In this document: positions 2,919 through 51,485 of the stretch, one piece after another
How the letters are laid out: each line of letters starts with the position of its first letter
Position numbering within the stretch: the stretch's first letter is position 1
NCBI GenBank assembly: GCA_964427175.1
Contig: CAYRTP010000002.1
Location: 12,084-72,356 of the forward strand
Direction of reading: 5' to 3'
Length of the DNA: 60,273 bases
DNA from: an uncultured Clostridium sp.
GTDB lineage: Bacteria > Bacillota > Clostridia > Oscillospirales > CAG-272
The notes under the pieces: generated by a model
The model's input: only the letters and a program-made list of their open reading frames with translations
What the model was told of the DNA's origin: nothing
The model's database searches: none
Position numbers and translations under genes: made by a program

Positions 2919-2947
2919 TTGAAAAGTACCTCGTTTTATGCTATAAT
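2919..2947 (+). promoter_or_regulatory. Sigma-70-type promoter of GH92-CapD-TIR-TIR gene string
   Basis: ttgaaa, 17 nt, tataat. Confidence 0.7.
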
Positions 2948-2988
2948 GAACCCAATATCACCTGCCCTGCAAGCAAAGGAGACTCACC

Positions 2989-5205
2989 ATGAAATACACC
3001 CAATACGTCAGCACCAAGATCGGCACCATCGGTGACATGACCGCTACCAGCATCCACGGCGGCGGCAAGACCCACCCCGGTGCCATTTACCCCTTCGGCA
3101 TGGTCCAGTTCGGCCCCGACACCTTTGAGGGCGGGGACAACGGCGCAGGCTACAGCTACCACCACACCACCATCGACGGCTTCAGCATCAACCATATGTC
3201 GGGCGTGGGCTGGTACGGCGACCTGGGCAACTTCCAGGTCATGTCCACTACGGGCCCCCTGAATCTCCTGTCCTCCACCTACCGCGATGCCCTCACCACC
3301 CGCGACGGCCGCGGCTATGAGTCTGACTTCCGCCATGAGACCGAGGTCACCGAGGCGGGCTACTACGCCGTCACCTTGGATACCTACGGCATCCGCGCCG
3401 AGACTACCTCCCTGCTCCATACGGGTATGATCCGCATGACCTACCCCGCAGGGGAGCGCCGTCGGGTCCAGATCAACCTGGCGCGCCGCATCGCGGGACG
3501 CTCCCCCGCCCAGGAGCTGACCATCATCGACCCCCACACCATCGAGGCCGTCATCCATTGCCCCAACTCCCACGGCGGTTTCGGCCGCGGTCAGGGCAAC
3601 GTCACTTACGATCTGTACGTCCACGCCGAGCTGTCCGAGGATTGGGACACCTACGGCGTGTGGAATAAGAACACTCCTGTGGCCGAGGTGTCCGACACCT
3701 ACGCGGGCGAGGAGCTGTGGTTCTACGCCGAGTACGCTCCCTCCGACCGCCCCCTGACCATGAAGGTGGGCATCTCCTACATCAACATGGAGGGCGCGCG
3801 GGATAACTTTGAGAAGGAGGCCGCAGGGAAGGACTTCGACGGAATGCACGCCGAAAACACCGAGGCCTGGGAGAAGGCCCTGTCGGTGGTCAAGGTGGAG
3901 GGCTCGGACACCGAGAAGCTGACCATTTTCTATACTACCCTGTACCACGCCCTCCTGGACCCCCGCGTCTTCTCGGATGCCAACGGCAACTATCTTTCGG
4001 CCGACGGTACGGTCCGCAACAACACATCCTTCGTTAAGCGCACCGTGTTCAGCGGATGGGACGTGTTCCGCAGTGAGTGCCCCCTTCTGACCATCATCAA
4101 GCCCGACGCGGTCAACGACATCATCAACACTCTCATCGACATCGCGGAGTACCGCAACGTCTCCTTCCCCCGTTGGGAGCTGTTGGGCCACGAGACGGGC
4201 TGTATGCTGGGTGACCCCGGTGTCATCGTGGCCGCCGATGCCTACCGCAAGGGCATCCGCAATTTCGATACTGCGAAGGCCTACGAGATCTGCCTCAAAA
4301 CCGCCTTTGATCCCGATACCAAGCGTCACGGTGCCGAGGCTATGAACACCCTGGGCTACGTCCCCGGTCAGATCTCCGATACCCTGGAGAACGTCTTTGC
4401 CGACCACTGCATCTCCCGCTTTGCCGAGGCGGTGGGAGACACCGAAAACGCGGACCTGTTCGCTCGACGGGCGCAGAATTACCGTAAGATCTACGATCCC
4501 GAGTCGGGCTGGATGCGGAGACGCTTCGAGGACGGTAGTTGGGCCGAGTGGAAGGGCGAGTATGACGAGACGGGATGCGTGGAGAGCAACATCTTCCAGC
4601 AGTCCTGGTTCGTGCCCCACGATCCCCAGGGCCTGATGGAGCTCATGGGCCGCGACCGCTTCCTGTCGGAGCTGGAGCGTCTGATGGCGGAATCCGACCT
4701 GTCGGCCATGTGGAATACCGCCTACAACCACCCCAACGAGCCCTGCCACCACATCATCCATATGTTCACCGACGCGGGCCAGCCCTGGCGGACCCAGTAC
4801 TGGGTCAGACGGGTCCAGGATGAGGCTTATAACACCACCGAGTACGGCTACTGCGGTAACGAGGACGTGGGTCAGATGTCGGCCTGGTTCACCTTGACCG
4901 CCCTGGGTATTCACATGATGGCCCCCGGAAGCGATATCTACCATATCAATACCCCCCTGTTCCGCCGCGCCGAGATCCGCCTGTCGGAGGAGTACCACCC
5001 CCGCAAGATCTCGGACACCCTGGTCATCGAGACCGACCGCGACCCCGCCGAGAACGTCTACATCCAAGGTGTCACGGTCAACGGTACCCCCATCAACCGT
5101 GCCTGGCTCACCTGGGAGGAGATCGCCAACGGCGGTGTCATCCGATTTGAGCTGTCGGATCAGCCCAATACCGAGTGGGGTAAGGAAGTGCCGACACAGG
5201 CTTGA
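2989..5205 (+). CDS. GH92 family alpha-mannosidase
   Basis: N-terminus GDMTATSIHGGGKTHPGAIYPFGMVQFGPDT and GYSY...I.GFS..H.SG are GH92 hallmarks; RBS aaggaga. Confidence 0.85.
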   Translation: MKYTQYVSTKIGTIGDMTATSIHGGGKTHPGAIYPFGMVQFGPDTFEGGDNGAGYSYHHTTIDGFSINHMSGVGWYGDLGNFQVMSTTGPLNLLSSTYRDALTTRDGRGYESDFRHETEVTEAGYYAVTLDTYGIRAETTSLLHTGMIRMTYPAGERRRVQINLARRIAGRSPAQELTIIDPHTIEAVIHCPNSHGGFGRGQGNVTYDLYVHAELSEDWDTYGVWNKNTPVAEVSDTYAGEELWFYAEYAPSDRPLTMKVGISYINMEGARDNFEKEAAGKDFDGMHAENTEAWEKALSVVKVEGSDTEKLTIFYTTLYHALLDPRVFSDANGNYLSADGTVRNNTSFVKRTVFSGWDVFRSECPLLTIIKPDAVNDIINTLIDIAEYRNVSFPRWELLGHETGCMLGDPGVIVAADAYRKGIRNFDTAKAYEICLKTAFDPDTKRHGAEAMNTLGYVPGQISDTLENVFADHCISRFAEAVGDTENADLFARRAQNYRKIYDPESGWMRRRFEDGSWAEWKGEYDETGCVESNIFQQSWFVPHDPQGLMELMGRDRFLSELERLMAESDLSAMWNTAYNHPNEPCHHIIHMFTDAGQPWRTQYWVRRVQDEAYNTTEYGYCGNEDVGQMSAWFTLTALGIHMMAPGSDIYHINTPLFRRAEIRLSEEYHPRKISDTLVIETDRDPAENVYIQGVTVNGTPINRAWLTWEEIANGGVIRFELSDQPNTEWGKEVPTQA

Positions 5206-5220
5206 AAGCGAGGTATTCCC

Positions 5221-6438
5221 ATGCATAACGCCAAGATTCCCCCTGACCTTGCCCGGGATTGGACGGTGGAGGACCTGCTGGGGCGGGAACCCGTGCGGGT
5301 CAACCCGGATGAGATCCGAGACGAGATCTACGAATCCCTGGCGGGCAAGGTCATCCTGGTCACGGGGGGCGGGGGCTCCATCGGCAGTGAGCTCTGCCGA
5401 CAGATCGCCCCTCATCACCCCAAAAAGCTCCTCATTTTCGATATTTACGAAAACAACGCCCACGCCATCGGTCTGGAGCTGACGGACCGCTACCCCGAGC
5501 TGGACCTGGAGATCCTCATCGGCTCGGTGCGGGACAGCCGCCGCCTGGAGCAGGTGTTCAGCAAGTACAAGCCCGACGTGGTCTACCACGCCGCGGCCCA
5601 CAAGCACGTCCCTCTCATGGAGGCAAACCCCTGCGAGGCCATCAAGAACAACGCCGTGGGAACCTATAAGACCGCCTACGCCGCCCTCGCGAACGGTTGC
5701 AGGCGGTTCGTGCTGATCTCCACGGACAAGGCGGTCAACCCCACGGGCATGATGGGGGCCTCCAAGCGTATCTGCGAGATGATCCTGCAGGCCTTCGATA
5801 AAAAACTGCGGGAAGGGAAGGCCTGTGAGCTGACTCCTCTTTGCATTCATGGCGGTGACGAGGCGGAGCCCGCTTCCCACGCCGTGCTGAACGCGGAAAC
5901 CCTTCACACCGAGTTCGTGGCGGTTCGTTTCGGTAACGTGTTGGACAGCAACGGCTCGGTGGTGCCCCGCTTCAAGGAGCAGATCGCCCGAGGCGGCCCC
6001 GTCACGGTGACCCATCCCGACGTGATCCGCTATTTCATGACCATTTCCGAGGCGGTTTCCCTGGTGTTGCAGGCGGGAACTTACGCCGACAGCGGGGAGA
6101 TCTTTGTCCTGGACATGGGGGACCCCGTCAAGATCGACACCCTGGCCCGCCGCATGATCCGCCTGGCGGGTATGCGCCCCGACGTGGATATTCAGATCTC
6201 CTACACGGGGCTCCGTCCCGGGGAGAAGCTGTACGAGGAAAAGCTCCTGTCCGAGGAGGACACCTGTACCACCCCCAACCGTGCCATCCACGTCGGAAGG
6301 CCTCTGCCCTTTGACGCGGACGATTTCCTTCGCCGTCTGCCGAGACTGGCCGAGGCCGCTTATAACGGGGAGGATGAGGCTCTCCGCCACCTGGTGGCCG
6401 AGGTGATTCCCGCCTACCGCCCCATGAGCGAAAATTGA
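5221..6438 (+). CDS. CapD/PglF/WbpM-like NDP-sugar 4,6-dehydratase, short form lacking the N-terminal membrane domain
   Basis: DLLGREPV...GKVILVTGGGGSIGSEL, VRFGNVLDSNGSVVP, GGPVTVTHPD, GLRPGEKLYEE. Confidence 0.75.
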   Translation: MHNAKIPPDLARDWTVEDLLGREPVRVNPDEIRDEIYESLAGKVILVTGGGGSIGSELCRQIAPHHPKKLLIFDIYENNAHAIGLELTDRYPELDLEILIGSVRDSRRLEQVFSKYKPDVVYHAAAHKHVPLMEANPCEAIKNNAVGTYKTAYAALANGCRRFVLISTDKAVNPTGMMGASKRICEMILQAFDKKLREGKACELTPLCIHGGDEAEPASHAVLNAETLHTEFVAVRFGNVLDSNGSVVPRFKEQIARGGPVTVTHPDVIRYFMTISEAVSLVLQAGTYADSGEIFVLDMGDPVKIDTLARRMIRLAGMRPDVDIQISYTGLRPGEKLYEEKLLSEEDTCTTPNRAIHVGRPLPFDADDFLRRLPRLAEAAYNGEDEALRHLVAEVIPAYRPMSEN

Positions 6439-6480
6439 ATTTTGACCCGAAAATCTGATGAGTACCTGCAAGGAGACATC

Positions 6481-8349
6481 ATGAATCCGAATATATGTAA
6501 CCAATGCGGCGGCGAATTTGAGTTCCGCGGCGGCCGATGGATCTGCCGTTCCTGCGGAGCCTACAAGCCGGAGTCCATCACCAACGAGGAAGTGACCCTG
6601 CTTTACACGGCGTACCAAAAGCTCCGTTTGACCGAGTTTGCTGAGGCAGAGCTGGAGTTCGACGACTTTATCCACCGTTATCCCGAGAATCCCAGCGGAT
6701 ACTGGGGCAGACTCCTGGCCAAATACGGCATCCAATACGAGCGGGATTTCGACGGCCGCATGATCCCGACCTGCTACGCCGCCTCCATCGGGAGTGTGAA
6801 ATCCGCTTCCGATTTCAAGAAGGCTCTGCAGTACGCGGATGCCGAGAACCGCGTCTACTACGAAAGCCAAGCCACCCACATCGAGCGCATACGGACCGAA
6901 TGGCAGGAAAAAGCCAAAAAGGAAAAGCCCTACGACGTGTTCATCTGCTACAAGGACAGCGACCTGGCCAACGGGATCGAGCGCACCAAGGACAGCTACG
7001 CCGCCCAGGAGCTCTACACCCTGCTGACGGATATGGGCTTTCGGGTGTTCTACAGCCGTGTGAGCCTGCGCGATAAGGTGGGAGAGAAATACGAGCCCTA
7101 CATCTTCCACGCCCTTTCCACGGCGCAGGTTATGATCGTGTACGGTTCCGAGCCCGAGTATATCCAATCCACCTGGCTGAAAAACGAGTGGATGCGTTAC
7201 GCCAAGCAGATCCGAGAAGGGAAGAAGAAGCCCGAGTCCCTGCTGGTGGCCTGCGAGGGCTTCTCTCCCGATGAGCTTCCCACCACTCTTTCCTCCATGC
7301 AGTGCTTCCGTGCCGAGGATAAGACCTTCTACGGGGATCTGCAAAACCGCGTAAGCCTCTTGCTTGGCCGTGAGGAGATCGAGGTCGGGGGGCGTGAAGG
7401 AGCACCGCGAAGAACCCGTCGCAGAAAGCGCCGCAGATGGGGCTGGATCCCGCTGGCTGTGGTATTAGTTCTGGCGGTGATGTTTTTTATCAGCTATCTG
7501 CAGTCCCAAGGTCCCGCCAAGCTGTATTATGTTTCCAATCAAGACGGCACCTGCTATGTCCGCCATATTCAGCTCAACGGAGATACGCATATTGATATCC
7601 CAGCCGAGTACAACGGGGAGCGCGTGACGGGAATCGGAGATAATGCCTTTTCATTCTCCTACGACTTGATAAGCGTGACGGTGCCCGCCGGGGTGACCCG
7701 AATCGGGGAGCACGCCTTTTCCTATTGCGACGATCTGCAGAGCGTAACGCTTCCGGACGGCGTGGAGAGCATTGGAGACTATGCCTTTGCGGACTGCGCC
7801 GCGCTGACGAGCGTTGAGATTCCCGCGAGCGTGACCGAGATCGGAGAATATGCATTCTTCGGTTGTAACGGGCTGACCGAGTTGATGATCCCCGAGGGCG
7901 TGACCGACGTTGGTAATTTGGCGTTTGCCTCCTGTGAAAATCTGACGAACGTGACGATTGCGGGCCCGCTGATAAGCGTTGGCTACAATGTGTTCAGCGA
8001 TTGCAAAAAGCTGACTACCGTGACCTTCACGGGTGAAAAAGCGGTCATCGGGCAGTCCATGTTCGGCGATTGCACCCATCTGTCCGACGTAACGGTACTT
8101 GCCCCTCTGAATTTTGTGGGTAGCAATGCATTTTCGGGATGCGTGTCCCTGGAAGTGATTCGCCTCCCCGAGCAGGTGGGGAGCTTGGATTACGGTGCTT
8201 TTGAAAATTGTACCTCCCTCACCGCTATTTATTACGGCGGCACGGTAGCTCAATGGGAGAAGGTTGATTGTCGGGGTGACTGGGACTACAATACCGGTGC
8301 CTACACGGTCTACTGTACCGACGGCACCGTGGCCAAGGCCGATCCGTAG
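6481..8349 (+). CDS. Zn-ribbon + TIR domain / single TM / extracellular BspA-type LRR protein
   Basis: RBS aaggaga 6470-6476, ATG 6481. CxxC..CxxC; YDVFICYKDSD...VMIVYGS...STWLKNEW (TIR-like); RRTRRRKRRR then helix IPLAVVLVLAVMFFISYL; about 280 aa of IGxxAFxxCxxLxxV repeats. Confidence 0.8.
   Translation: MNPNICNQCGGEFEFRGGRWICRSCGAYKPESITNEEVTLLYTAYQKLRLTEFAEAELEFDDFIHRYPENPSGYWGRLLAKYGIQYERDFDGRMIPTCYAASIGSVKSASDFKKALQYADAENRVYYESQATHIERIRTEWQEKAKKEKPYDVFICYKDSDLANGIERTKDSYAAQELYTLLTDMGFRVFYSRVSLRDKVGEKYEPYIFHALSTAQVMIVYGSEPEYIQSTWLKNEWMRYAKQIREGKKKPESLLVACEGFSPDELPTTLSSMQCFRAEDKTFYGDLQNRVSLLLGREEIEVGGREGAPRRTRRRKRRRWGWIPLAVVLVLAVMFFISYLQSQGPAKLYYVSNQDGTCYVRHIQLNGDTHIDIPAEYNGERVTGIGDNAFSFSYDLISVTVPAGVTRIGEHAFSYCDDLQSVTLPDGVESIGDYAFADCAALTSVEIPASVTEIGEYAFFGCNGLTELMIPEGVTDVGNLAFASCENLTNVTIAGPLISVGYNVFSDCKKLTTVTFTGEKAVIGQSMFGDCTHLSDVTVLAPLNFVGSNAFSGCVSLEVIRLPEQVGSLDYGAFENCTSLTAIYYGGTVAQWEKVDCRGDWDYNTGAYTVYCTDGTVAKADP
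6928..7335 (+). other. Predicted TIR domain of 6481-8349 (aa ~150-285)
   Basis: beta-A DVFICYK, SxWxxxE-like motif STWLKNEW with Glu codon at 7186-7188. Confidence 0.65.
7447..7500 (+). other. Predicted transmembrane helix, N-in/C-out by the positive-inside rule
   Basis: Ten-residue Arg/Lys run directly upstream (7408-7437); 18 hydrophobic residues. Confidence 0.7.
7513..8346 (+). other. Predicted extracellular LRR_5/BspA-type repeat domain
   Basis: Repeats such as VTRIGEHAFSYCDDLQSVTLPDGV, ESIGDYAFADCAALTSVEIPASV, TEIGEYAFFGCNGLTELMIPEGV. Confidence 0.75.
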
Positions 8350-8375
8350 GCTTCGGGAAAACGTAAGGAGGAGCT

Positions 8376-9518
8376 ATGAATCCAAATATATGTAACCAAT
8401 GCGGTGGCGACTACGAATACCGCAACGGCCGCTGGATCTGCCGTGCCTGCGGCTCCTACAAGCCGGAATCGATCTCGACCGAGGAGGAGATCCTGCTCTA
8501 TACGGCGTACCAAAAGCTCCGTTTGACCGACTTTGCCGAGGCAGAGGCGGAATTCGATGATTTGATCCGCCGCTACCCCGAGAACCCGAGCGGATATTGG
8601 GGCAGGCTCTTGGCCAAATACGGCATCCAATACGAGCGGGACTTCGATGGCCGCATGATCCCGACCTGCTACGCCGCCTCCATCGGGAGCGTGAAATCCG
8701 CCTCCGATTATAAGAAGGCTCTGCGGTACGCGGATGCCGAGAACCGCGCGTACTACGTGGGTCAGGCCGAGTACATGGAGCGCGTGCGGGTGCAATGGCA
8801 GGAGAAGGCCAAGCATGAGCCGCCCTACGATATATTTATCTGCTACAAGGACAGTGACCTGGCCAACGGGATCGAGCGCACCAAGGACAGCTACGCCGCC
8901 CAAGAGTTGTACACCCTGCTGACGGATATGGGCTTTCGGGTATTCTACAGCCGTGTGAGCCTGCGTGGCAAGGTAGGCGAGAAATACGAGCCTTACATTT
9001 TCCACGCCCTCTCTACGGCGCAGGTCATGATCGTGTACGGCTCAGATCCTGAGTACATCCAATCCACCTGGCTGAAAAACGAGTGGATGCGGTACACCAA
9101 GCAGATCCGCGAAGGGAAGAAGAAGCCCGAGTCTCTGTTAGTGGTCTGCGAGGGCTTTCCCTTTGAGGAACTGCCCGTTGCGCTGTCCTCCGGGCAGTGC
9201 TTTCGCGCGGAGGACAGGACTTTTTACATGGAGCTGAAAAAGACCGTCAACCACCTGTTCGGACGCAAGAAGAAGACCGTGGTCAGCGCGGCGAGAATGG
9301 GCCTGAGCAAATGCCTGGCGTTTCTGTTCGGCGGTCTGACCCTGCTGGGACTGGGACTGATGAAAAATCTGTTCGAAATTGCCGCTCTGTTGGACGGATT
9401 CATGAAGTACGCGGTTGCCGCCATCGGCGTATTGCTTGCGCTGGTTCCGCTTCTCGTTATGATCCTGAATATCCGCTTTTTGCGGAAGCATACCGTTTCG
9501 GAAAGGCGACGAAAATAA
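8376..9518 (+). CDS. Zn-ribbon + TIR domain protein with C-terminal two-helix membrane anchor (LRR-less paralog of 6481-8349)
   Basis: RBS aaggagg. Colinear without indels with the upstream gene over the first ~290 aa; same STWLKNEW (Glu codon 9081-9083). C-terminus LSKCLAFLFGGLTLLGLGL and AVAAIGVLLALVPLLVMIL. Confidence 0.8.
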   Translation: MNPNICNQCGGDYEYRNGRWICRACGSYKPESISTEEEILLYTAYQKLRLTDFAEAEAEFDDLIRRYPENPSGYWGRLLAKYGIQYERDFDGRMIPTCYAASIGSVKSASDYKKALRYADAENRAYYVGQAEYMERVRVQWQEKAKHEPPYDIFICYKDSDLANGIERTKDSYAAQELYTLLTDMGFRVFYSRVSLRGKVGEKYEPYIFHALSTAQVMIVYGSDPEYIQSTWLKNEWMRYTKQIREGKKKPESLLVVCEGFPFEELPVALSSGQCFRAEDRTFYMELKKTVNHLFGRKKKTVVSAARMGLSKCLAFLFGGLTLLGLGLMKNLFEIAALLDGFMKYAVAAIGVLLALVPLLVMILNIRFLRKHTVSERRRK

Positions 9519-9881: not shown

Positions 9882-10757
9882 ATGAAAAACTACCTGACTC
9901 AATTCTTCGGTGACCAGCAATACACCCCCGCTGACACCGCTTACCTCCTGACGGCCTATGACCGCATTATGGCGGATCCCGAGACCTGCGGGCTGTGGAA
10001 CGAAGCTCTGGCCCTTTACGGCGAGCGGGTGGACTGCGACTACGGCGACATCATCCGCAAGGCCGATCGCGCGGCCGAGATCCTGGGCTTCCACCAGTAC
10101 ACCGCCGAGCTGCTGGTGTTCATCTGCCTGTCCAAAAAGCTCCGCGAGCGATACGTTGAGCGGGGGCTGGACCTGGCCATCTTTGAGCGGAGCATGGCTG
10201 ACCTGCGCTACAAGGTGGAGGAGTGCAAGCTGGTCTACGGCATCGTGGGCTCCTTCGTGGCCGAGTGGTTCATCGGCTTCTTCAACCTCACCCGCTTCGG
10301 CCTGGGACGGTTGCAGTTCGAGATCATCCGCTTTGGGGCGGAGTACGACAAGGACGGCCACGTCCTGACCCCCGACAGCCCTGTGGTCAACATCCACATC
10401 CCCCGTTCGGGCGAGCCTCTGACCGAGGAGGCCTGTCGGGATGCTTTCACCCGCGCCAAGGCTATGTTTAGCCCCGAGGTGGGAGATCCCTGTCCCTTCG
10501 TTTGCAACTCCTGGCTCCTCAACCCCGAACACGAGGACTTCCTGCCCAAGCACACCAATACCTACCGCTTTTTCAAGAGCTTCGACATCATCGCCTCGGG
10601 CCAGGACAAGGGCCGCAACAACCTGTGGCGGCTGTTTGACACCATGGAGCGGAACCCCGACAGGCTCCCCGCCGACACCTCCATGCGCCGCGCCTACGTG
10701 GAGCATCTGAAAAAAGGCGGCCTGATGGGCTACGGCCGCGGCGTGCAGTTTTGGTGA
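9882..10757 (+). CDS. DUF5596 / GNAT-like C-terminal (acyltransferase) domain protein
   Basis: VVNIHIPRSGEPL...FVCNSWLLNP...F pattern recalled from this family; RBS aaaggaga. Confidence 0.55.
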   Translation: MKNYLTQFFGDQQYTPADTAYLLTAYDRIMADPETCGLWNEALALYGERVDCDYGDIIRKADRAAEILGFHQYTAELLVFICLSKKLRERYVERGLDLAIFERSMADLRYKVEECKLVYGIVGSFVAEWFIGFFNLTRFGLGRLQFEIIRFGAEYDKDGHVLTPDSPVVNIHIPRSGEPLTEEACRDAFTRAKAMFSPEVGDPCPFVCNSWLLNPEHEDFLPKHTNTYRFFKSFDIIASGQDKGRNNLWRLFDTMERNPDRLPADTSMRRAYVEHLKKGGLMGYGRGVQFW

Positions 10758-10864
10758 GCCTTGACCGTGGGGCCGTGGCGGTATTGCCGTAAAAGCCGAA
10801 TCGCTGACAAGTTAACGAATATAGGGCATGTATGACAGGAACGATTCATGAAGGGAGTAGTCCA

Positions 10865-11488
10865 ATGAGAGAATACCATCTATACGAAGTCAAAAGTCAA
10901 GCTACGGGTCTGAAAATTGAATATGCAATTGATAAAAAAAAACACTTGACTCCGCTATATGTCTTTGCATTTATCGTGTTTGGCTTGGTCATGGCTATCA
11001 TGGCTATCGAGCAATTTACAGTGAGAAATTTCAATAACGTCGCCGTTCTGTGCATGCTATGCGGATATTTTGTTATCATGGCAATCGTTTTCTTCGTTCA
11101 AGAAAAAAACCAAAAGCCCTATTCCCTGATGGTGGATGCAACGGGGTTCCATGAACAATCCGTCAGTTATAAAAGCAAGGATATTCTATGGAATGAGGTG
11201 TGCTATATAAATTTTTTCCCGGATATTGTCCTTGAAGGCGGAAAAACAGTTCAATCCTACGGTGCCGTTGTCATTTCCAAGGTGGCGGCAACGGACGAGG
11301 AAAGAAAAAAGTATATAAAGAAGCATTGGGGCTCGATTTCCAAGGCGAAATCAGAGGATTCCATTATTCTTTGCACGGGGACAACACAGGCGAGAAGAAT
11401 CTATGAATTGATCGCAGCCAAAGCCGCTCTGTTCGGTGATGCAACTGTGCTCAAAAGAACAATAGATACTTCAGACGCAATCTGTTAG
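10865..11488 (+). CDS. Hypothetical two-TM membrane protein (AT-richer gene)
   Basis: ATG 10865 after gaagggag; helices LYVFAFIVFGLVMAIMAI and VLCMLCGYFVIMAIVFFV; no recognised family. Confidence 0.5.
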   Translation: MREYHLYEVKSQATGLKIEYAIDKKKHLTPLYVFAFIVFGLVMAIMAIEQFTVRNFNNVAVLCMLCGYFVIMAIVFFVQEKNQKPYSLMVDATGFHEQSVSYKSKDILWNEVCYINFFPDIVLEGGKTVQSYGAVVISKVAATDEERKKYIKKHWGSISKAKSEDSIILCTGTTQARRIYELIAAKAALFGDATVLKRTIDTSDAIC

Positions 11489-37557: not shown

Positions 37558-39927
37558 ATGAAGAAATTCTTATCGACACTTTTAGGATTCGTTCTTCTAT
37601 TCTCTCTCACCGTACCGGCCATAGCGTCAGGCATCATCGGAAGCACCGAGGGAGACGTCACCGCAAGCTTTAACCCCGATATTGCCATCACCGGTGTCAG
37701 CGTTGTCGGCGATACCGTCACCTATGATGCCGCGACCAAAACCTATACGGTGATGATCCCGATCGGGGCAGAGCTTGTTTCATACACGAAGGTGATCGAG
37801 GGAGCGAATTTGACATACATTCCCGAAAGTGATGAGACCTATTTCATTAAGGAGGTCGTTGGTACCCAAGAAAACAGCAAACCGATCGGTGCCGATATCG
37901 ACCAGGCTTACGATGAAGGAACCGGAACGCTTCGAATTGAAGGTGCGGTTTCCTCCGAGGATGCAAACACGTCTTCGAAATACGCCTTCTCCAATGACGG
38001 CGGCGAAACTTGGAGTGACCCTGTAACCATTGTAATCAAGCAGGCACACGCCATCACCGTAAACACCACCGCCAACGGAACCGTCACCGTTGGTGGTAAC
38101 AAGACCTCCGCCGTGGAGGGCGAGACAGTCGAGTTGTTCGTCAACGCCGCCGAAGGCTACGCGCTGGATACTTTGACTGTCACCGACGCGCACGGCGCCG
38201 ATGTGCCCGTCAGCGCAAACCACACCTTTACTATGCCCGCGTCCGACGTGACCGTCAGCGCGACCTTCAAGGTATCTGTCATCACCTACACGGTGACGAT
38301 TAACCCTGTGGAAAACGGAACCGTCTCCGCCAACAAGAGCGGCACTCACGCAGGCGACAACGTGACCCTGACCATCAGCCCCGGCAATGGTTACAGACTG
38401 CATAGCCTGACGATTACCGATTCGTCCAACGGCAGCGTACCTTACACCGACAGCTACTCCTTCGTTATGCCTGCCTCCAACGTCACCATCACCGCCACCT
38501 TTCAGGCCGTATACGCCATTACAACAGAAATCAACGGAGACGGCACCATCCAAACGCCCGCTATCGCAGCAGAAGGAGAGTCCGTCACGGTAACTTTGAA
38601 TCCGGCTGACGGCTATACACCCACGAATTTCAAGGTATTCAGCGGAGCGGAGCCTATTGCGCATAACCAGGTAAATGACACGACTTATTCTTTTAGAATG
38701 CCCAACAAAGCAGTTGTCATGTCTGTTGACTTTTTCCTTCCCGGCACCACGCTGGAAACCATCTACTATAAGGGATCTTGGACCAACGTTCTGTTCGAGT
38801 TCTTCAACTCCGCAGGCACCCAAACGGGAACGGCTACCGGCACCATGGCGGAAGCCGGTGTCTATGCGGTTACGGGAATTCCCGATTGGACCACCGTGAT
38901 CATTTTCCGAAATACGGACAACGCGGAGGAGTTCATTCGCCAAACCATTCCGACCAATGATCAAAATATGTACGATGCCGTCAACTCCGCATGGTCCACC
39001 TATGCCCCCTCCCAACCGCCCGAGGACACCGTTTCCGCTGAAATCACCTGGGGCAGTATGAGCTTCACATACGATGATACCATTGCCGAAGGCGCAATCG
39101 CAGAAAACGGGTGGACCAACGACGGCTCTGATGGCGCAGCCACCATTACCGTGAAGAACACAGGCGACACCGGGATCACCGTCAGCGTTTCTTACATCCC
39201 TGAAGGCACCTACTCCGGAATTAACGGAACCTTCGACTCAGACTCCGCCGACCTGGAGACCGCGGTTTCCCAAACCTTCACCCTGACCCTGAGCGGCAAA
39301 CCGAAAAAGGTGATTCCCGCAGGAACCAAAATCGGTCAGGTGACCATCACCATCACAGCGTCTCCCAATCAAGACAATGACCCCCAGCTAACCGGCATTA
39401 CGACCCCTGAAGCCTTGGCGGAGGCTATCGCCGCAGGCGGGGATATTAAGTTGGGTGGGGATATGACTATCGAAACCCTCTCGATCTCAAATTCGGTAAA
39501 TATTGATCTGGGCGGACACACCTTAACCACAGAATTAACCATAAAGAGCGGGGCAGCTCTGCACCTTTCAGGCGGCACCATCAGAGGAAGCAACACCACC
39601 GCTGTGCGGAACGATGGAGGAACCGTTCACATTGAAGACTGTATATTGATCGCACCCAGAAATGCGTTTTACCATACACAGGGTACTTCCACATTACAAA
39701 ATTGCGAGATACATGGTTATGTAGAAGTTGCTTCCATTCAACAGACTGATGTAATAATGCTGAAACCGATCGTCTGGCGTTCCGGTACAGGTTCCACGGA
39801 TTATACAGGAATGCACGTATATTGGCAAGCCTCTGTCCTCTGCGACTTCGACCCCGCAGGCCATACTAACGGCACCGTCACCCAAAATCTTACCGACGGC
39901 ACCTGGACGGTCACCGCCGTCTCATAA
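37558..39927 (+). CDS. Secreted multidomain protein: signal peptide, three InlB-B-repeat-like modules, CBM-like module, C-terminal beta-helix-like region
   Basis: MKKFLSTLLGFVLLFSLTVPAIA signal. Repeats end in MPASDVTVSATF / MPASNVTITATF / MPNKAVVMSVDF. Confidence 0.7.
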   Translation: MKKFLSTLLGFVLLFSLTVPAIASGIIGSTEGDVTASFNPDIAITGVSVVGDTVTYDAATKTYTVMIPIGAELVSYTKVIEGANLTYIPESDETYFIKEVVGTQENSKPIGADIDQAYDEGTGTLRIEGAVSSEDANTSSKYAFSNDGGETWSDPVTIVIKQAHAITVNTTANGTVTVGGNKTSAVEGETVELFVNAAEGYALDTLTVTDAHGADVPVSANHTFTMPASDVTVSATFKVSVITYTVTINPVENGTVSANKSGTHAGDNVTLTISPGNGYRLHSLTITDSSNGSVPYTDSYSFVMPASNVTITATFQAVYAITTEINGDGTIQTPAIAAEGESVTVTLNPADGYTPTNFKVFSGAEPIAHNQVNDTTYSFRMPNKAVVMSVDFFLPGTTLETIYYKGSWTNVLFEFFNSAGTQTGTATGTMAEAGVYAVTGIPDWTTVIIFRNTDNAEEFIRQTIPTNDQNMYDAVNSAWSTYAPSQPPEDTVSAEITWGSMSFTYDDTIAEGAIAENGWTNDGSDGAATITVKNTGDTGITVSVSYIPEGTYSGINGTFDSDSADLETAVSQTFTLTLSGKPKKVIPAGTKIGQVTITITASPNQDNDPQLTGITTPEALAEAIAAGGDIKLGGDMTIETLSISNSVNIDLGGHTLTTELTIKSGAALHLSGGTIRGSNTTAVRNDGGTVHIEDCILIAPRNAFYHTQGTSTLQNCEIHGYVEVASIQQTDVIMLKPIVWRSGTGSTDYTGMHVYWQASVLCDFDPAGHTNGTVTQNLTDGTWTVTAVS
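38047..38733 (+). repeat. Three tandem ~73-codon coding repeats (InlB B-repeat-like) inside 37558-39927
   Basis: aa 164-237, 243-315 and 319-392 share NGTV…G..V.L…GY.L..L.V…F.MP...V.V.A.F. Confidence 0.75.
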
Positions 39928-43903: not shown

Positions 43904-44545
43904 TTATCGGCGGATGCGGTTTTCCGCCCAGGTTTTGTGGGCGTAGACCCGCACGAAATACGTAAAGGCAAACATGATACCAAGACCCAGCACGAGCCCG
44001 ATCCATGCATTTTGGAAGGGCTCACACAAGCCAATGAAGCCCACGAAGAACTGCTCCAATCCCCATGCGCCGGCGTAGCCGAAGCCTATACCCGACATGG
44101 AGAGGGAGACGGTGTAGAAGATGGTGGGAATCATCCACAAAATGCCGGTGGATAGTGTGCAGACCAAGCTCTCCACGATGGCCAGTTTGCGGTAGCGGGC
44201 GATGCCCTCGGCCACATTTTCGGCGCCGCGGATCTCAACCGAGGTGGCCGCGAGGAAGGCGCGCTTGCGCTCGCTGTCCTTCAGATAGAATACGGCGACA
44301 ACCGTAGCGATCACCAGGACCGAAACCAAGCCGAACGCGAACATGGTCCAGCGGATGCGCGTGCTCAATCCGTCCCGCACCATGAGCTGTTCCACCGAGT
44401 TGCTGAGGAACAGCGTGTAAAACAGCCAGGTGACCGCGTGGTAGATCAGGATGAAAAACAGGTGTCGGATGGCGGTTCGCACGTGGTTGGTTTTTTCGGG
44501 CGTGTAGGTGGGGGCTTGGGGCTTGGATGTGTAATTTTGTTTCAT
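43904..44545 (-). CDS. Multi-pass membrane protein, unknown function
   Basis: Strong RBS aaaggagaa; several hydrophobic helices; no recognised family. Confidence 0.5.
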   Translation of the reverse strand: MKQNYTSKPQAPTYTPEKTNHVRTAIRHLFFILIYHAVTWLFYTLFLSNSVEQLMVRDGLSTRIRWTMFAFGLVSVLVIATVVAVFYLKDSERKRAFLAATSVEIRGAENVAEGIARYRKLAIVESLVCTLSTGILWMIPTIFYTVSLSMSGIGFGYAGAWGLEQFFVGFIGLCEPFQNAWIGLVLGLGIMFAFTYFVRVYAHKTWAENRIRR

Positions 44546-44566
44546 GGCTGTTTCTCCTTTCCTTTT

Positions 44567-45160
44567 TTAAGTATCGTTATGGATTAGCTTCCAAAAATCC
44601 TGCATATTCATTACCGTATGCTCGGCCACGGTATCGCCGGAATGGATCTCCGTGTATTTGTGGTCGGCGTAGGTGATGCGCATGGGTGCGGGATAGACCA
44701 AGAGAATTTGCATGGCGTATTCCTCCTCCTTGGGGGTCAGCACGAGCGCCTTTCGGCTCAGACGCAACTCGTTCTTGCGCTCGTGAACCGAGTCTGCTAC
44801 GCTCAAATGGCGTTTTTTGGAGTAGAAGAACTCGGGAGGACGGCGCGCCTCGATCAGATGCCCCGTGCGGGTTTTCTCAAAGCTCCATCGACCGTGAACC
44901 GAGATGAAGGAGATCACACTCACCTCATACCGCTTGCCTTTCACGGTTACGTAGTAGTCCGCCTCCCCCTTTGTCCCGAACAGAATCCCCTTGAGTCCGC
45001 GCAATTCCTCTACCATGATCCCCTCCTTCCTGCCCAGCTTTCGCATTTTGGAGCGGAAGGAAAACATTTTGACGATGTACCAAATCACCTTGTAAACCGT
45101 GTAGAAATAAAGGATCCACGCAAGAATGATCAACAGATAAATGACAATTTGAATAACCAT
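44567..45160 (-). CDS. N-terminally anchored hypothetical protein (AT-rich; shares C-terminal domain with 45885-47147)
   Basis: Helix IVIYLLIILAWILYFYTVYKVIWYIV; RBS aaggagg lies inside the upstream gene end. Confidence 0.5.
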   Translation of the reverse strand: MVIQIVIYLLIILAWILYFYTVYKVIWYIVKMFSFRSKMRKLGRKEGIMVEELRGLKGILFGTKGEADYYVTVKGKRYEVSVISFISVHGRWSFEKTRTGHLIEARRPPEFFYSKKRHLSVADSVHERKNELRLSRKALVLTPKEEEYAMQILLVYPAPMRITYADHKYTEIHSGDTVAEHTVMNMQDFWKLIHNDT

Positions 45161-45161
45161 A

Positions 45162-45782
45162 TCAGTCCTCCTTATGGGAAGTTTCGTTTTGTGAAGTCAG
45201 TGTGGGCGCATCTCCCTGACTCGCTCTCTGCCACCGCCACATGAATCGGTACACGAGCGCGATGAGTATGCCGTAAACAGCCGCATACAGGAGATACCAA
45301 AGGGCAAAAACAAAGAAATCGGCGGGGATGTATTCGAGATCATTGCGAATCGCTTCATGACGTTTTGTGGCGATCATATATGTATTTTCAAAAAGGAAAC
45401 ACGCGAATTTGCTGAAACGACCTCCGATTTGACTCTGATGTCCCAAGCATATGAAGCTGATCAAGAAGCGAATGATCTCGCCTGGCAAAACAAATTTCAG
45501 GAAATGTTTTTTCCAATGGCTTTTCTTATCATACTGTTTGGGGATGAAAAAGAAAAACACAATTCCTACCGCAAAAACAGGGAGTATAAGGTCAATAATC
45601 AGATAAAGCGAAAAACCCAAAACGAACAAGAATTCAAGGGGAATTTTGTTATATATCGGAGCAATAAAAACGCCAGCCACGGATGCGGACAGGTCTTTTG
45701 TAATGGTGTAGTAGGCAAACAGAAACAAAACGTACAGGATAATGTGCGGGATCGTAACTTTTTTCTTCTTGAAAAAACTCAT
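45162..45782 (-). CDS. Multi-pass membrane protein, unknown function (AT-rich)
   Basis: ATG 45782 eight nt after aaggagg (the track start at 45788 is TTG). Confidence 0.5.
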   Translation of the reverse strand: MSFFKKKKVTIPHIILYVLFLFAYYTITKDLSASVAGVFIAPIYNKIPLEFLFVLGFSLYLIIDLILPVFAVGIVFFFFIPKQYDKKSHWKKHFLKFVLPGEIIRFLISFICLGHQSQIGGRFSKFACFLFENTYMIATKRHEAIRNDLEYIPADFFVFALWYLLYAAVYGILIALVYRFMWRWQRASQGDAPTLTSQNETSHKED

Positions 45783-45884
45783 AGGCAAGCCCTCCTTGGT
45801 AAGAAATCATGGGTTTTTTCTATTATAACATTATAGTCAACTATAAAGTCAAGCCCCTTTCTTGAAATTTCTTCAAAAAATTTT

Positions 45885-47147
45885 TTAAGTCCTCTCCAGC
45901 ATATTCAAAAAAGAATTTTTCCCATACACCGTATAGTCAAAGACCTTGGAGGCGTTGTCCAGGGGCAAATATTCTCCGTCTCGTGTTCCCCGCAAGCAAA
46001 GAGTGTAGGGGACGGGGTCGAGCAATAGAATCTGCGCGCCTTCACCCTTCGGAAAATCAAAATCATGGTTGGTGAACCAGGAGAGCGTAGGCATAGTCAA
46101 GGTGCGCATTCCCGCGGCTTGCGCCCCGCCTGCCCGCATCATACCGATGCCGCCGGCCATATTCCGAGCGATGCGGATATTGATGGTGTACATGAACTGG
46201 TAGACGTGATCTTCGCACAGAATTATGGCGAAACGGCGGCGGTGACAGTTGGCCACGGTCACCTGGTAGGTGGTGACGGATGGGTGCTTGCCGTCGGGAT
46301 GAGGGTAGTCTGTGATGGTCAAATGAAAATCATTGGCAAAGCCGAACAGGGAACGGTAGGGATGACCGTGGATCTCGTATGAAATTTCTTCCTTATCCCG
46401 TAAATGCGCCAACCGATGCAAAAACTTCCGTCTCTCCAGAATGCGGCGAATGCAGTGCAGAATCTCCAAGGCAACCAGAATGCCCAAAAGAATCAAGAAG
46501 GGGATTTTCAGCAATGCGATGACTGCGTTGACGATCGAGCCGAAAATGGGGAAGAAAATGGTGATTCCGCTGTAAACCAGTGCCACAAGGGAGCCAAAGT
46601 AGATCAAGGCATAGATGATGCGTCCGATGAGCTTGTACTTTTTATCCTTGAAGCTACGGAGATTTTTCTGCACGGCCCAGATACGGTTCAACCGTGTGAT
46701 ACGGAGGAGGGATGCGGCCGAGACAAACAGGAGGGCGCCGCCTGCTGCAAGCGCAACCTTCCCTGCTTCAGGCAGAGTGATATACTGCAACGGGGCAAAC
46801 CCGGCAAGGGTCAGAATAGGGGAGGCTCCCAAAACCGTGAGGATGTATCCGGTCAAAAAACCAGGGTCGTGGAGCAGATTGGGGGTGTCGGCTGCTTGAC
46901 AGAAACGGTTGAAGCTGTAGTCATCAATGTGGTCATAATACCACCACAGGGCAATAAATATGGCTATGTCTGTAAGCAGAGGGATGACGGCGAATTTTGC
47001 GTTTTTCTGTTCTACCCATTGAAAGAGCAGATTGTCCAACGCCATATTGGCAATGGTGTTCAGAAGAAATAATTGTACAACGCAGAGAAGGGCTTTGAAG
47101 CCATGCCAAAGCACGTCCTTTTGTCGGGGGGAGATGCGTGGTTTCAT
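45885..47147 (-). CDS. Polytopic membrane protein with soluble C-terminal domain, unknown family (AT-rich)
   Basis: About six N-terminal helices. C-terminal part by eye resembles 44567-45160 (…QILLLDPVPY… versus …QILLVYPAPM…). Confidence 0.5.
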   Translation of the reverse strand: MKPRISPRQKDVLWHGFKALLCVVQLFLLNTIANMALDNLLFQWVEQKNAKFAVIPLLTDIAIFIALWWYYDHIDDYSFNRFCQAADTPNLLHDPGFLTGYILTVLGASPILTLAGFAPLQYITLPEAGKVALAAGGALLFVSAASLLRITRLNRIWAVQKNLRSFKDKKYKLIGRIIYALIYFGSLVALVYSGITIFFPIFGSIVNAVIALLKIPFLILLGILVALEILHCIRRILERRKFLHRLAHLRDKEEISYEIHGHPYRSLFGFANDFHLTITDYPHPDGKHPSVTTYQVTVANCHRRRFAIILCEDHVYQFMYTINIRIARNMAGGIGMMRAGGAQAAGMRTLTMPTLSWFTNHDFDFPKGEGAQILLLDPVPYTLCLRGTRDGEYLPLDNASKVFDYTVYGKNSFLNMLERT

Positions 47148-49988: not shown

Positions 49989-50005
49989 CTCCGGATCCCC
50001 TCCCC

Positions 50006-50479
50006 TCAATCATTGTCCTGCTCCATGGCGCAGTCGATGGCCAGGACCAGGGCGAGGGCTTGGATCTCGTCGGCGGGGTCGCGGATGTCCAGGGCGTAGC
50101 AGTCCCCCCAGGTGAACCATTCCTTGGCGATGGTGACGATGGGCTCCCCGCCGCGGTAGACGGTGTAATCGTGGGACCAGAACTCCCCTTCCACGTCCCA
50201 ATCGGCCCCCTCCACGGTGTAGCGGGGGCGGAAGAAGGAGAACTCGCGGACCACCTCACCGACCAGCTGACCGTAGGCGTAGACCTCGTAGCGGGGCTTG
50301 AAGGTGAAGATCTGTTGCTCGATGTAGGCCACCTCCCGCCCGTCGGGGGTGCAGACGTGGAGCTTCTTGCCCCAGGAGAACAGCTCGCCCTCCACGTAGT
50401 AGCGGTCATTGCCCGCCTCGTCCTTGACCGTAAAGCGGTCGTTCCAGGTGAAGATCTTTTCTTCAATCAGCAATTTCAT
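50006..50479 (-). CDS. LURP-one-related (DUF567, tubby C-terminal-like) family protein
   Basis: IFTWNDRFTVKDEAGNDRYYVEGELFSWGKKLHV…FTFKPRYEVY…WSHDYTVY repeat pattern typical of DUF567. Confidence 0.7.
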   Translation of the reverse strand: MKLLIEEKIFTWNDRFTVKDEAGNDRYYVEGELFSWGKKLHVCTPDGREVAYIEQQIFTFKPRYEVYAYGQLVGEVVREFSFFRPRYTVEGADWDVEGEFWSHDYTVYRGGEPIVTIAKEWFTWGDCYALDIRDPADEIQALALVLAIDCAMEQDND

Positions 50480-50794
50480 AGAATATAATCATCCTTTCCT
50501 AAAATATCTTGTTTAATTGTCTACATTATAACATACAATCGAATGATTGTCAATAGGTTTTCAAGGAATATGTTAAAAAATCTACAATTTTCTTGCCTGA
50601 ATGTAAACCAAGCGACTATTTAAATGCCTGAATGGGAAAAAAGAGATCGGGAAAAGAGATTTTACGTTGTTCGGTAGACAATTATAACTCTTAAAATCTA
50701 AGAAGTCAATATGATTTTTCAAAATTTTCCGAATTTTTAAGAAATTTGTGCAATATATCTTACAATATAAGAAAAAAGATGCGAGGTATTGTAC

Positions 50795-51130
50795 ATGGAT
50801 CAAATTCCGAATCTTAGTCAAATACTGAAAAACACCCGCGAGGATCTTGATCTCACGCAACTGAAGGTAATGGAACTGACGGGAATTAACCATAAAACCT
50901 TGTCGGGCTATGAAAACGGTGTGGCTGAGCCTGATTTGCAGGCACTGGCGACCTTGTGTCGCCTGTATAAGCTCTCCATGGATGTGGTCCTTGGCCTCAA
51001 GCCTACTCCGGATGCGCTACTGTTAAGCCGCCGAGAAAAGGATTTGGTTGAGCTATACCGGCGGCTTCCCTCGGATAGCCAGCGTGCCTTGGTGACTCTT
51101 TTAAGTGGCCTGATTGAGCGGAACTCATAA
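50795..51130 (+). CDS. XRE-family HTH transcriptional regulator
   Basis: LKNTREDLDLTQLKVMELTGINHKTLSGYENGVAEPD. Confidence 0.8.
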   Translation: MDQIPNLSQILKNTREDLDLTQLKVMELTGINHKTLSGYENGVAEPDLQALATLCRLYKLSMDVVLGLKPTPDALLLSRREKDLVELYRRLPSDSQRALVTLLSGLIERNS

Positions 51131-51181
51131 GCATATGTAAATAAAAAATCCGCCCGAGGGCGGAAAAAATGCGAAAAGGTG

Positions 51182-51210
51182 TTGACAAAACCGCGTCGGC
51201 GGTGTATCAT
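51182..51210 (+). promoter_or_regulatory. Promoter of sRNA copy A
   Basis: ttgaca, 17 nt, tatcat. Confidence 0.65.
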
Positions 51211-51216
51211 AAAAAC

Positions 51217-51301
51217 GTAGGGGCTGCCGGTGACGGTTGCTTCCTCGTAATACGATTAAGATAACCGTTTTGTTTGGAAGACTGGGCGGTTATCTTTTTT
51301 T
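51217..51301 (+). ncRNA. Candidate small RNA, copy A (homolog of 32584-32671)
   Basis: 5' ACGTAGGGGCTGCCGGTGACGGTTGCTTCC; terminator AGATAACCG…CGGTTATCT + TTTTTT. Confidence 0.55.
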
Positions 51302-51364
51302 ACTGTTCAAGTAAGACATGATGACGAATGCCAATGTAACAAGGTCGATCAAGAGATAGATCAA
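51290..51364 (-). CDS. Candidate 24-codon hydrophobic/basic peptide (type I toxin-like), convergent with sRNA copy A
   Basis: TTG start; translation LIYLLIDLVTLAFVIMSYLNSKKR; stop inside the shared terminator stem. SD weak or ambiguous and no clear promoter. Confidence 0.35.
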   Translation of the reverse strand: MIYLLIDLVTLAFVIMSYLNSKKR

Positions 51365-51414
51365 TTCGCCTTTTCCACTCCGAAAAATTTTTTCAAAAAA
51401 ATTTGAAAAACCCC

Positions 51415-51443
51415 TTGACAAATCCGCCGACATGATGTATAAT
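51415..51443 (+). promoter_or_regulatory. Promoter of Rrf2-rubrerythrin-rubredoxin cluster
   Basis: ttgaca, 17 nt, tataat; inverted repeat TTTCAAA-N4-TTTGAAA just upstream (51391-51408). Confidence 0.7.
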
Positions 51444-51485
51444 TAAATCACACCAAAACAGTGTCATTTGAGGAGGCAACCAAAG

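Follow-up and report, generated by a model that had tools for sequence, protein, structure and literature searches.

Architecture of the TIR-LRR protein

We analyzed a 60,273-nt stretch of DNA from an uncultured Clostridium sp. (assembly GCA_964427175.1, contig CAYRTP010000002.1, positions 12,084 to 72,356; hereafter the window), in which an unbroken open reading frame (ORF) at 6481-8349 on the plus strand encodes a protein of 622 aa. According to Pfam and AlphaFold2, this protein comprises a zinc ribbon, a helical domain, a domain of the Toll/interleukin-1 receptor type (TIR), a single transmembrane (TM) helix, and leucine-rich repeats (LRRs) of the LRR_5 type. An earlier reading of the letters alone (the original prediction) had likened this arrangement to that of animal Toll-like receptors (TLRs), with the TIR domain inside and the LRRs outside the cell. 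All sequence features listed there, including the motifs YDVFICYKDSD, VMIVYGS, and STWLKNEW and the IGxxAFxxCxxL repeats, were found where it had placed them. The ATG at 6481 was taken as the start codon instead of the upstream TTG at 6442, because it coincides with a conserved methionine and has a Shine-Dalgarno-like AAGGAGA (6470-6476, plus strand) upstream, the last base of which lies 4 nt ahead of the ATG. In an alignment of 40 homologues, this methionine is nearly invariant and the consensus start reads MNxNICNxCGG. The coordinates that follow refer to the plus strand unless stated otherwise.

The zinc ribbon occupies aa 1-28 (6481-6564). Its four cysteines C6, C9, C22, and C25, which form the CxxC...CxxC pattern pointed out in the original prediction, are invariant in the 40 homologues, the model shows a beta-hairpin at residues 12-22, and Pfam returned weak matches to zinc-ribbon families. 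The adjoining helical domain (aa 29-146; 6565-6918; pLDDT, the predicted local distance difference test, about 80-97) consists of three TPR-like helices (TPR, tetratricopeptide repeat), a beta-hairpin, and a long helix. Scans with Pfam and NCBIfam assigned no family to it, and Tah1 and PP5, both TPR proteins, were weak Foldseek matches (E about 0.05-0.1). The label "TPR-like" is the weakest part of the original description: only the three helices (residues 35-81) and the weak Tah1 and PP5 matches speak for it. The TIR domain (aa 150-296; 6928-7368) was recognized by Pfam TIR_2 (PF13676) on aa 153-279 with 33.4 bits (E 7e-8; gathering score 28 bits), which places it within the TIR superfamily, and by Foldseek and a sequence match to the TIR domain of TLR2/15. 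Models of defence systems and of NCBI matched it weakly, which applies to ThsB1 (E 4e-4), PDC-S66 (E 4e-5), and ThcB4 (E 1e-5). It is followed by a disordered juxtamembrane linker (aa 297-321; 7369-7443; pLDDT below 50 for residues 299-320), which contains the polybasic run RRTRRRKRRR (aa 310-319; 7408-7437), and by the TM helix, a signal anchor identified by Kyte-Doolittle hydropathy and as an AlphaFold2 helix at residues 323-341 (aa 322-341; 7444-7503). NCBIfam produced weak matches to anti-sigma factors over the juxtamembrane and TM-helix stretch. The remainder (aa 342-622; 7504-8346) forms a BspA-type LRR solenoid, predicted to be extracellular, that belongs to LRR_5 (PF13306; 210 bits in total, E 8e-63) by virtue of matches in two stretches, the better of which spans aa 384-512. 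The score of LRR_8 on this ectodomain was 14.8 bits against a cutoff of 27.

A full-length AlphaFold2 model built from the 40-sequence alignment reached a mean pLDDT of 90.9. From the N-terminus, it comprises the zinc-ribbon hairpin (12-22), helices 35-49, 53-66, and 71-81, a beta-hairpin (85-97), helices within 110-146, an alternating beta/alpha domain (153-294), the disordered linker (299-320), the membrane helix (323-341), and a beta-solenoid (347-618). Since the N-terminal 305 aa retained a pLDDT of 90.3 and a predicted template modelling score (pTM) of 0.85 when modelled alone, the zinc ribbon, the helical part, and the TIR domain are predicted to pack as a single unit, referred to below as the module. 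A Foldseek search against the PDB with this module retrieved the TIR domains of SARM1, SPARTA TIR-APAZ, AbTir, MyD88, RPS4, and TIR-STING, with TM-scores (normalised by target length) of 0.6-0.72 for the isolated TIR chains of SARM1, AbTir, and MyD88; model and matches agree in the flavodoxin-like TIR fold. The solenoid matched solved structures of BspA-type surface LRR proteins from gut bacteria (4fs7, 4gt6, and 4h09), TpLRR (6mlx), and PcpA with E-values from 1e-13 to 1e-8, the best being 4fs7 and 4gt6 (E 1e-13), and a PDB profile search gave E 4e-53 for 4gt6. Both folds expected in the original prediction were hence returned. Another match of the LRR region, PDB chain 8suf, is annotated as "TIR domain-containing protein"; this chain is the Caenorhabditis elegans TLR TOL-1 and was discarded as a bacterial precedent.

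The TIR domain carries a putative catalytic glutamate, Glu236 (codon 7186-7188), in the sequence W232-L-K-N-E236. A PDB sequence search matched the TIR region to the TIR domain of TLR2/15 with E 1e-3 for the single sequence and E 6e-5 for a profile; this profile was built from a TIR-only alignment, as an alignment of the whole module was dominated by the LRRs of long homologues. STWLKNEW pairs with SCWCQYEL of the TLR2/15 TIR domain and with KNWTEYEL of chain 7uxr ("TIR domain protein"), which places Glu236 in the W-x3-E column of helix alpha-C. Glu236 is the Glu of the NEW motif that had originally been proposed as the catalytic residue, and it is invariant; W232, N235, W237, and the stretch GEKYEPYI are likewise invariant or nearly so in the homologue alignments. 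Judging from its position after strand B, GEKYEPYI probably corresponds to the BB loop. In a survey of TIR domains, the W-x3-E column holds the glutamate of NAD+-cleaving (NADase) TIRs (PMC7075850). Its presence is necessary for this activity and not sufficient.

Membrane topology was assessed by hydropathy, charge bias, and the AlphaFold2 model. The N-terminus lacks any hydrophobic stretch, in line with the original statement that the protein has no signal peptide, and the only hydrophobic helix was found at aa 322-340 (19-residue Kyte-Doolittle mean 2.5). Lysine and arginine are unevenly distributed around it, with nine in the 15 residues before the helix and one in the 15 residues after it, and the C-terminal 282 aa are acidic (35 D/E vs. 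11 K/R). Zinc ribbons and the substrate NAD+ are cytoplasmic features. With the zinc ribbon and the NAD+-using fold on the K/R-rich side, the sequence strongly favours an N-in/C-out orientation, with the TIR half predicted in the cytoplasm and the LRRs outside. When our hydropathy scan was extended to 63 complete relatives encoded in species-representative genomes, 54 proved to have one or more hydrophobic segments after the module, and 51 of these 54 show a K/R excess on the TIR side; 29 relatives are single-pass, 25 are multi-pass, and nine have no predicted membrane segment. The polybasic run, the single TM helix, and the positive-inside bias highlighted by the original prediction are therefore all present in the protein, and the bias extends to most of its membrane-bound relatives.

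The two-gene cassette, the module family, and a linked operon

The gene is followed, after a gap of 26 nt, by a short paralog (8376-9518) with its own Shine-Dalgarno-like AAGGAGG (8365-8371). Its 380-aa product comprises a zinc ribbon, a helical domain, a TIR domain (TIR_2, 31.8 bits), a membrane hairpin, and a basic C-terminal end. By BLASTP, aa 1-302 are 83% identical to the module of the long gene (251/302 positions). The hairpin (aa 308-364; 9297-9467) was identified by Kyte-Doolittle hydropathy as two hydrophobic segments at about 308-328 and 346-364 and is conserved in short-form orthologues; an ectodomain is absent. The same long-plus-short pair was found in four further loci (L078, L079, L080, and L081). 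It is flanked by GH43 upstream and a major facilitator superfamily (MFS) gene downstream in L078, L079, and L080, by other genes in L081, and, in the window, by GH92 and Polysacc_synt_2 on the upstream side and a GNAT-like gene on the downstream side. As the pair recurs in three different flank contexts, it behaves as a two-gene cassette. Directly downstream of it in the window lie a NAT_N/GNAT_C acyltransferase-like gene (9882-10757) and a 218-aa ORF without family assignment (10832-11488), both of which are probably unrelated to the cassette because they are absent beside it in the related contexts.

Long and short modules of the same genome are 84, 86, and 79% identical, and orthologues from different genomes are 83-86% (long-long) and 80-81% (short-short) identical. 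Since modules within a genome are as alike as orthologues between genomes, the sequences hint at concerted evolution of the long and short modules. A separate observation concerns two near-identical relatives, L078 (10001-13027) and L080 (4686-7712): the number of synonymous substitutions per site (dS) is 0.011-0.016 for the long gene and 0.16 for the adjacent short paralog, so that a tenfold jump spans the 18-nt gap between them. This pattern suggests recombination or gene conversion inside the L078/L080 cassette.

The module is widespread. The protein combines the features by which we delimited the family, i.e., an N-terminal CxxC...CxxC, the helical domain, and a TIR domain with KYEPYI and W[LMV]KNEW, together covering residues 1 to about 295. 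With the first 300 aa as query and E ≤ 1e-30 as the limit, a search retrieved at least 3,486 clusters (50% identity); in all of the best 150 of these 3,486 clusters the match begins at or near the N-terminus, and the proteins are 373-5,169 aa long. In a scan of species-representative genomes, we identified 126 relatives in 77 loci. Hosts are mostly uncultured gut or rumen Clostridia labelled Christensenellaceae, Oscillospiraceae, Ruminococcaceae, or Lachnospiraceae; others include Mollicutes-type Bacilli (Izemoplasma, Anaeroplasmataceae, and Acholeplasmataceae), Synergistaceae, an Elusimicrobiaceae, and a Sodaliphilus bin. Several genomes contain multiple family loci, with tandem arrays of up to five genes. 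The closest relatives from species-representative genomes are 42-46% identical over the full protein and at most 65% over the module. C-terminal parts are highly varied: among the 63 complete relatives, the module is followed by LRR_5 in 23, Flg_new in 13, DUF6273 in 13, Flg_new_2 in eight, and ankyrin repeats, TPRs, and FNIP repeats in four each, and Glug, SH3_3, and Lectin_C were also found. The survey suggested by the original prediction thus shows LRR_5 replaced by Flg_new, DUF6273, ankyrin, TPR, lectin, and other domains.

Compared with the L078 orthologue, the ratio of nonsynonymous to synonymous substitution rates (dN/dS) was 0.08 for the module and 0.24 for the ectodomain, at a dS of about 1.15, which is near saturation. 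Where modules are 83-86% identical, ectodomains retain 61% and 40% identity. On these sequence comparisons, both halves are functional and under purifying selection, and the ectodomain evolves about three times faster. An artefact or a pseudogene is excluded by the conservation across thousands of homologues, the dN/dS values, and the recurrent architecture.

Clustering of all ORFs from the 77 related loci further revealed that 44 of them contain one of two operon patterns, with the family genes downstream. Type A comprises an SPFH protein of the Band_7_1 type, a roughly 340-aa coiled-coil protein, a helical protein of 194 aa, and mostly a classic AAA ATPase, followed by one to five family genes and often by a zinc-ribbon trypsin-like protease. 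Type B has an SPFH protein that bears zinc ribbons at its C-terminus; a membrane protein of about 230 aa usually comes next, and then the family genes. Type A is exemplified by L018 (4438-8000), L020 (2312-8000), and L003 (1258-4826), and in L043 (5895-15543) and L058 (7137-16057) four to five tandem family genes with differing C-termini stand behind a single operon copy. The protease was found near family genes in 13 listed loci, usually directly after them, and resembles defence-associated proteases in a scan with defence models. The AAA ATPase can be aligned from end to end with CdvC, the Vps4 homologue of archaea (E 3e-65, below the model cutoff), and a further match is IetA from the defence system IetAS (E 7e-39).

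The 194-aa protein (e.g., L012, 3928-4512) is 76-97% identical among the best 120 of 675 relatives, unlike the TIR modules of the relatives from GTDB loci, which are often only about 35-65% identical to that of the window. It matched nothing in Pfam, NCBIfam, or PADLOC, and none of the 675 close relatives carries a Pfam domain. An ESCRT-III- or PspA-like identity was considered and not demonstrated, the PDB profile matches being at chance level only. In L003, a TIR/membrane-helix/LRR gene directly follows the type A operon, so that the architecture found in the window belongs to this association; a tblastn search with all seven partner clusters found none of the operon partners in the 60-kb window itself. 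The operon is apparently undescribed. A phage-shock-protein paper that mentions "Tir" together with Band-7 (PMC11237479) deals with the unrelated CesT/Tir chaperone.

Regarding its wider surroundings, the cassette neighbours GH92, Polysacc_synt_2, a GNAT-like protein, and MatE (Pfam), and the window also encodes a SpoIVB peptidase, a penicillin-binding protein, a phosphoglucomutase, and glycoside hydrolases. It is chromosomal DNA of an endospore-forming Firmicute, with a GC content of about 58%. An Rfam scan of the window returned no match, and predicted promoter and terminator sites were no more numerous than in shuffled sequence. On the minus strand, an open frame of 1,467 aa (2941-7344) overlaps the genes for GH92, Polysacc_synt_2, and the TIR protein in antisense; rather than being a gene, it most likely arises as a by-product of the high-GC codon usage of the coding strand. 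A conventional surface LRR protein of the BspA type (LRR_5; 634 aa; 913-2817, starting with GTG at 913) is encoded 3.7 kb upstream of the TIR-LRR gene, with a signal-peptide-like segment at aa 36-54 and a C-terminal membrane helix at aa 593-611; its repeats and those of the TIR-LRR ectodomain share about 32% identity. Further downstream, an ORF of 789 aa (37558-39927) encodes three Flg_new_2 (InlB B-repeat-like) domains, a type that also occurs at the C-terminus of some family members, and lies in or beside a low-GC patch (36-38 kb, GC 0.49). Additional low-GC patches were found at 44001-46000 (0.485) and 50001-52000 (0.497), and the region from about 50 to 53.5 kb contains few long ORFs and no RNA family match.

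Possible functions of the TIR-LRR protein

Our tentative explanation, to which we assign a probability of roughly 45%, is that the protein acts as a type II single-pass receptor in which binding at the surface controls assembly of the cytoplasmic TIR domain. The cytoplasmic module, including a TIR domain with an intact catalytic-type glutamate, would lie at the inner face of the membrane, the LRR solenoid would be displayed on the surface, and the flexible polybasic linker and the TM helix would connect the two halves. The receptor may act together with the presumably co-transcribed short paralog, which would hold the same module on a membrane hairpin. A multivalent extracellular ligand, with a phage particle, the surface of another cell, or a host or dietary polymer as candidates, would engage the LRRs and cluster the receptors. 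TIR enzymes such as SARM1, AbTir, SPARTA, and TIR-STING are activated by oligomerisation. The clustered TIR domains could accordingly assemble into the oligomers required for enzyme activity and cleave NAD+, which would lead either to depletion or to an ADP-ribose-derived signal, and paralogs with interchangeable ectodomains would constitute a recognition repertoire.

We favour this receptor because of the constrained catalytic-type TIR domain, the oligomerisation rule, the flexible linker, the diversifying repertoires of ectodomains, and the conserved TIR-only membrane partner. The analysis shows the domain identities, the predicted fold, the conserved glutamate, purifying selection, the family-wide charge bias, the paired genes, and how large and variable the family is; we infer the in vivo topology, an enzymatic activity, clustering by a ligand, what the short paralog does, and any function in immunity. 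A broader version appears doubtful. In this version, thousands of paralogs with interchangeable ectodomains, among them LRRs, Listeria-Bacteroides repeats, and lectin domains, would form a surface-receptor repertoire with a clustering-triggered TIR NADase, the hairpin protein would serve as co-receptor or adaptor, and the system would be coupled to the SPFH/AAA/protease operon in many genomes. Its targets would most plausibly be adsorbing phages or competing cells.

Several observations weigh against a receptor. The conserved glutamate gives no guarantee of NADase activity, as the same residue is frequent in the non-enzymatic TIR domains of TLR1/2/6/10 (PMC7075850). An ectodomain is not universal in the family, given the relatives with multi-pass C-termini or without any membrane segment. 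The genes flanking the cassette are housekeeping or glycan-related and do not form a defence island, and no SLOG, Macro, SIR2, or SAVED effector was recognized in the window. We also rejected membership in Thoeris, as an adjacent ThsA-type effector is missing and ThsB1, PDC-S66, and ThcB4 are matched only weakly. Moreover, a conserved N-terminal module joined to variable surface C-termini in tandem arrays is also a mark of variable surface-protein and adhesin families, and the linked operon points no less to membrane assembly or sorting than to sensing.

These last points lead to an explanation that we regard as less probable than the receptor and on a par with its broader version, namely an anchored variable surface protein. 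Its ectodomain would be an adhesin or surface binder, and the zinc ribbon, helical domain, and TIR domain would provide a handle for anchoring, clustering, or sorting. The module might dock on a scaffold of the SPFH protein, the 194-aa protein, and the Vps4/CdvC-like AAA ATPase for placement in a microdomain or loading into vesicles; the TIR domain would mainly be an oligomerising scaffold, and information would flow from the inside out or not at all. This would agree with the position of the SPFH operon ahead of family genes in 44 of the 77 loci and with the up to five paralogs with different ectodomains that can follow one operon. Likewise, LRR_5, Flg_new, DUF6273, Glug, and SH3_3 are domains typically seen in surface proteins of Firmicutes, the window itself encodes other, free-standing surface proteins with domains of these types (913-2817 and 37558-39927), and TIR domains are known as scaffolds, with MyD88 and MAL filaments among the fold matches. 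However, the invariant W-x3-E glutamate and the conserved putative BB loop argue for retained catalysis, a 300-aa module held at a dN/dS of 0.08 would be a costly anchor, none of the SPFH, AAA ATPase, or protease genes lies within the 60 kb of the window, and an ESCRT-III-like identity of the 194-aa protein lacks a PDB or Pfam match.

Rather improbable, in our estimate, is a membrane-tethered TIR toxin of the abortive-infection type, whose NADase would be silenced by the tether and the N-terminal domain and whose ectodomain would be a decoy or irrelevant to signalling. Membrane damage could trigger it, or proteolytic release at the exposed polybasic linker, e.g., by the trypsin-like protease of the operon. 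The disordered Arg/Lys-rich linker (aa 299-320) would suit such an enzyme, and a zinc-ribbon trypsin-like protease stands beside family genes in the 13 listed loci mentioned above. In addition, the AAA ATPase resembles that of IetAS, an ATPase-plus-protease defence system, the protease has defence-associated counterparts, and the short paralog is itself a TIR domain on a membrane anchor. According to a preprint on the amoebal protein TirC, a membrane helix keeps a bacterial-type TIR NADase in check, and cleavage is proposed to release it (PMC13142454); TIR proteins with membrane segments have also been reported among the antiphage systems of E. coli (PMC11350192). A tethered toxin would leave the large, diversifying ectodomains and the purifying selection on them unexplained, though, and neither a protease nor an AAA ATPase gene nor a defence-island neighbourhood was found in the window. 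A host-directed mimic that interferes with TLR signalling, like Brucella TcpB/BtpA or E. coli TcpC, is very improbable. The TIR domain weakly matches those of TcpB/BtpA (4lzp and 4lqc, E 0.3-0.9), and the carrier organisms are gut-associated, but the protein has no signal peptide, its TIR domain lies on the K/R-rich, predicted cytoplasmic side, the fused zinc ribbon needs a reducing compartment, and members of the family are encoded in sediment-type Izemoplasma genomes as well.

If the function of this family were confirmed, it would offer bacterial TIR biology a candidate for surface sensing that can be tested directly, and the BspA-type and Listeria-Bacteroides-repeat surface proteins, which are very abundant in gut Firmicutes, would gain an unexpected role in cytoplasmic signalling or assembly. 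The linked SPFH/Vps4-like AAA ATPase/protease operon may tie TIR chemistry to membrane remodelling. If the repertoire proved true as well, it would represent the first functional TLR analogue of bacteria and the first outside-in trigger of TIR immunity.

Comparison with known TIR, LRR, and type II membrane proteins

To our knowledge, the characterised bacterial TIR systems all sense infection from inside the cell. Searches of full-text literature of incomplete coverage returned no account of a TIR-LRR protein that spans a bacterial membrane, of its N-terminal module, or of the operon association, and a recent survey of bacterial TIR systems remarks that they seem to lack the TM and LRR features of TLRs (PMC11350192). 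Both agree with the original prediction, which knew of no characterised bacterial sensor of this kind. The domain combination as such is certainly already visible in public domain databases.

Bacterial TIR defence proteins, including Thoeris ThsB, TIR-STING, SPARTA TIR-APAZ, AbTir, and the E. coli systems (PMC11350192), share the TIR fold and the W-x3-E glutamate with the protein, as is also reflected by the fold matches to AbTir, SPARTA, and TIR-STING, and their oligomerisation-gated NADase chemistry would be the expected output here. They differ in being cytosolic sensors that are encoded beside a dedicated effector or sensor gene, whereas the protein described here has a membrane helix and a large predicted extracellular domain. 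In predicted fold, its TIR domain is nearest to the enzymatic TIRs. TirC of Dictyostelium comes closer in one respect, as it holds a bacterial-type TIR NADase on the membrane by a single helix and this tether restrains its toxicity (PMC13142454). It is, however, eukaryotic, its helix is N-terminal to the TIR domain, and it has neither an ectodomain nor a zinc ribbon nor a paralog pair.

With respect to sequence and predicted fold, the ectodomain resembles BspA-type LRR proteins, which applies to Tannerella BspA, Treponema pallidum TpLRR, pneumococcal PcpA, and the structures 4fs7, 4gt6, and 4h09. Those proteins are secreted, or anchored via a signal peptide, a lipid, a choline-binding domain, or a C-terminal anchor, and lack a cytoplasmic enzymatic domain. 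Type II receptors of Firmicutes, like the PASTA kinases PrkC, PknB, and StkP and the RsgI anti-sigma factors, consist of a cytoplasmic N-terminal output domain of about 300 aa, a charged juxtamembrane stretch, a single TM helix, and extracellular repeats that bind the cell wall or polysaccharides. They are the nearest bacterial analogues in architecture and follow the same topology plan; their output is a kinase or a sigma-factor-binding domain instead of a TIR domain, and PASTA or carbohydrate-binding modules take the place of LRR_5.

The protein shares with TLRs (Toll, TLR1-13, and TOL-1) the combination of an LRR ectodomain, a single TM helix, and a TIR domain in the cytoplasm, which in our case is predicted. 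Further likenesses are the TIR sequence match to TLR2/15, the glutamate in the column that is also occupied in TLR1/2/6/10, and a multi-gene repertoire with variable ectodomains; the membrane-bound TIR-only partner loosely recalls the membrane-associated adaptors. In contrast to the type I orientation of TLRs, the protein is type II, with an N-terminal TIR domain and no signal peptide. Its repeats are of the BspA/LRR_5 type and not the capped, typical LRRs (LRR_8) of TLRs, and it possesses an additional zinc ribbon and helical domain, without the death-domain adaptors or kinases of TLR signalling. Of the TLR-like compartment logic put forward originally, the domain anatomy and the predicted orientation hold, and the likeness is limited to this layout. 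Given the reversed orientation and the different class of LRRs, this likeness does not imply descent from TLRs, and the architecture was most likely assembled independently, i.e., by convergence. If its function were confirmed, the solution of placing LRRs outside and a TIR domain inside the cell would have arisen more than once.

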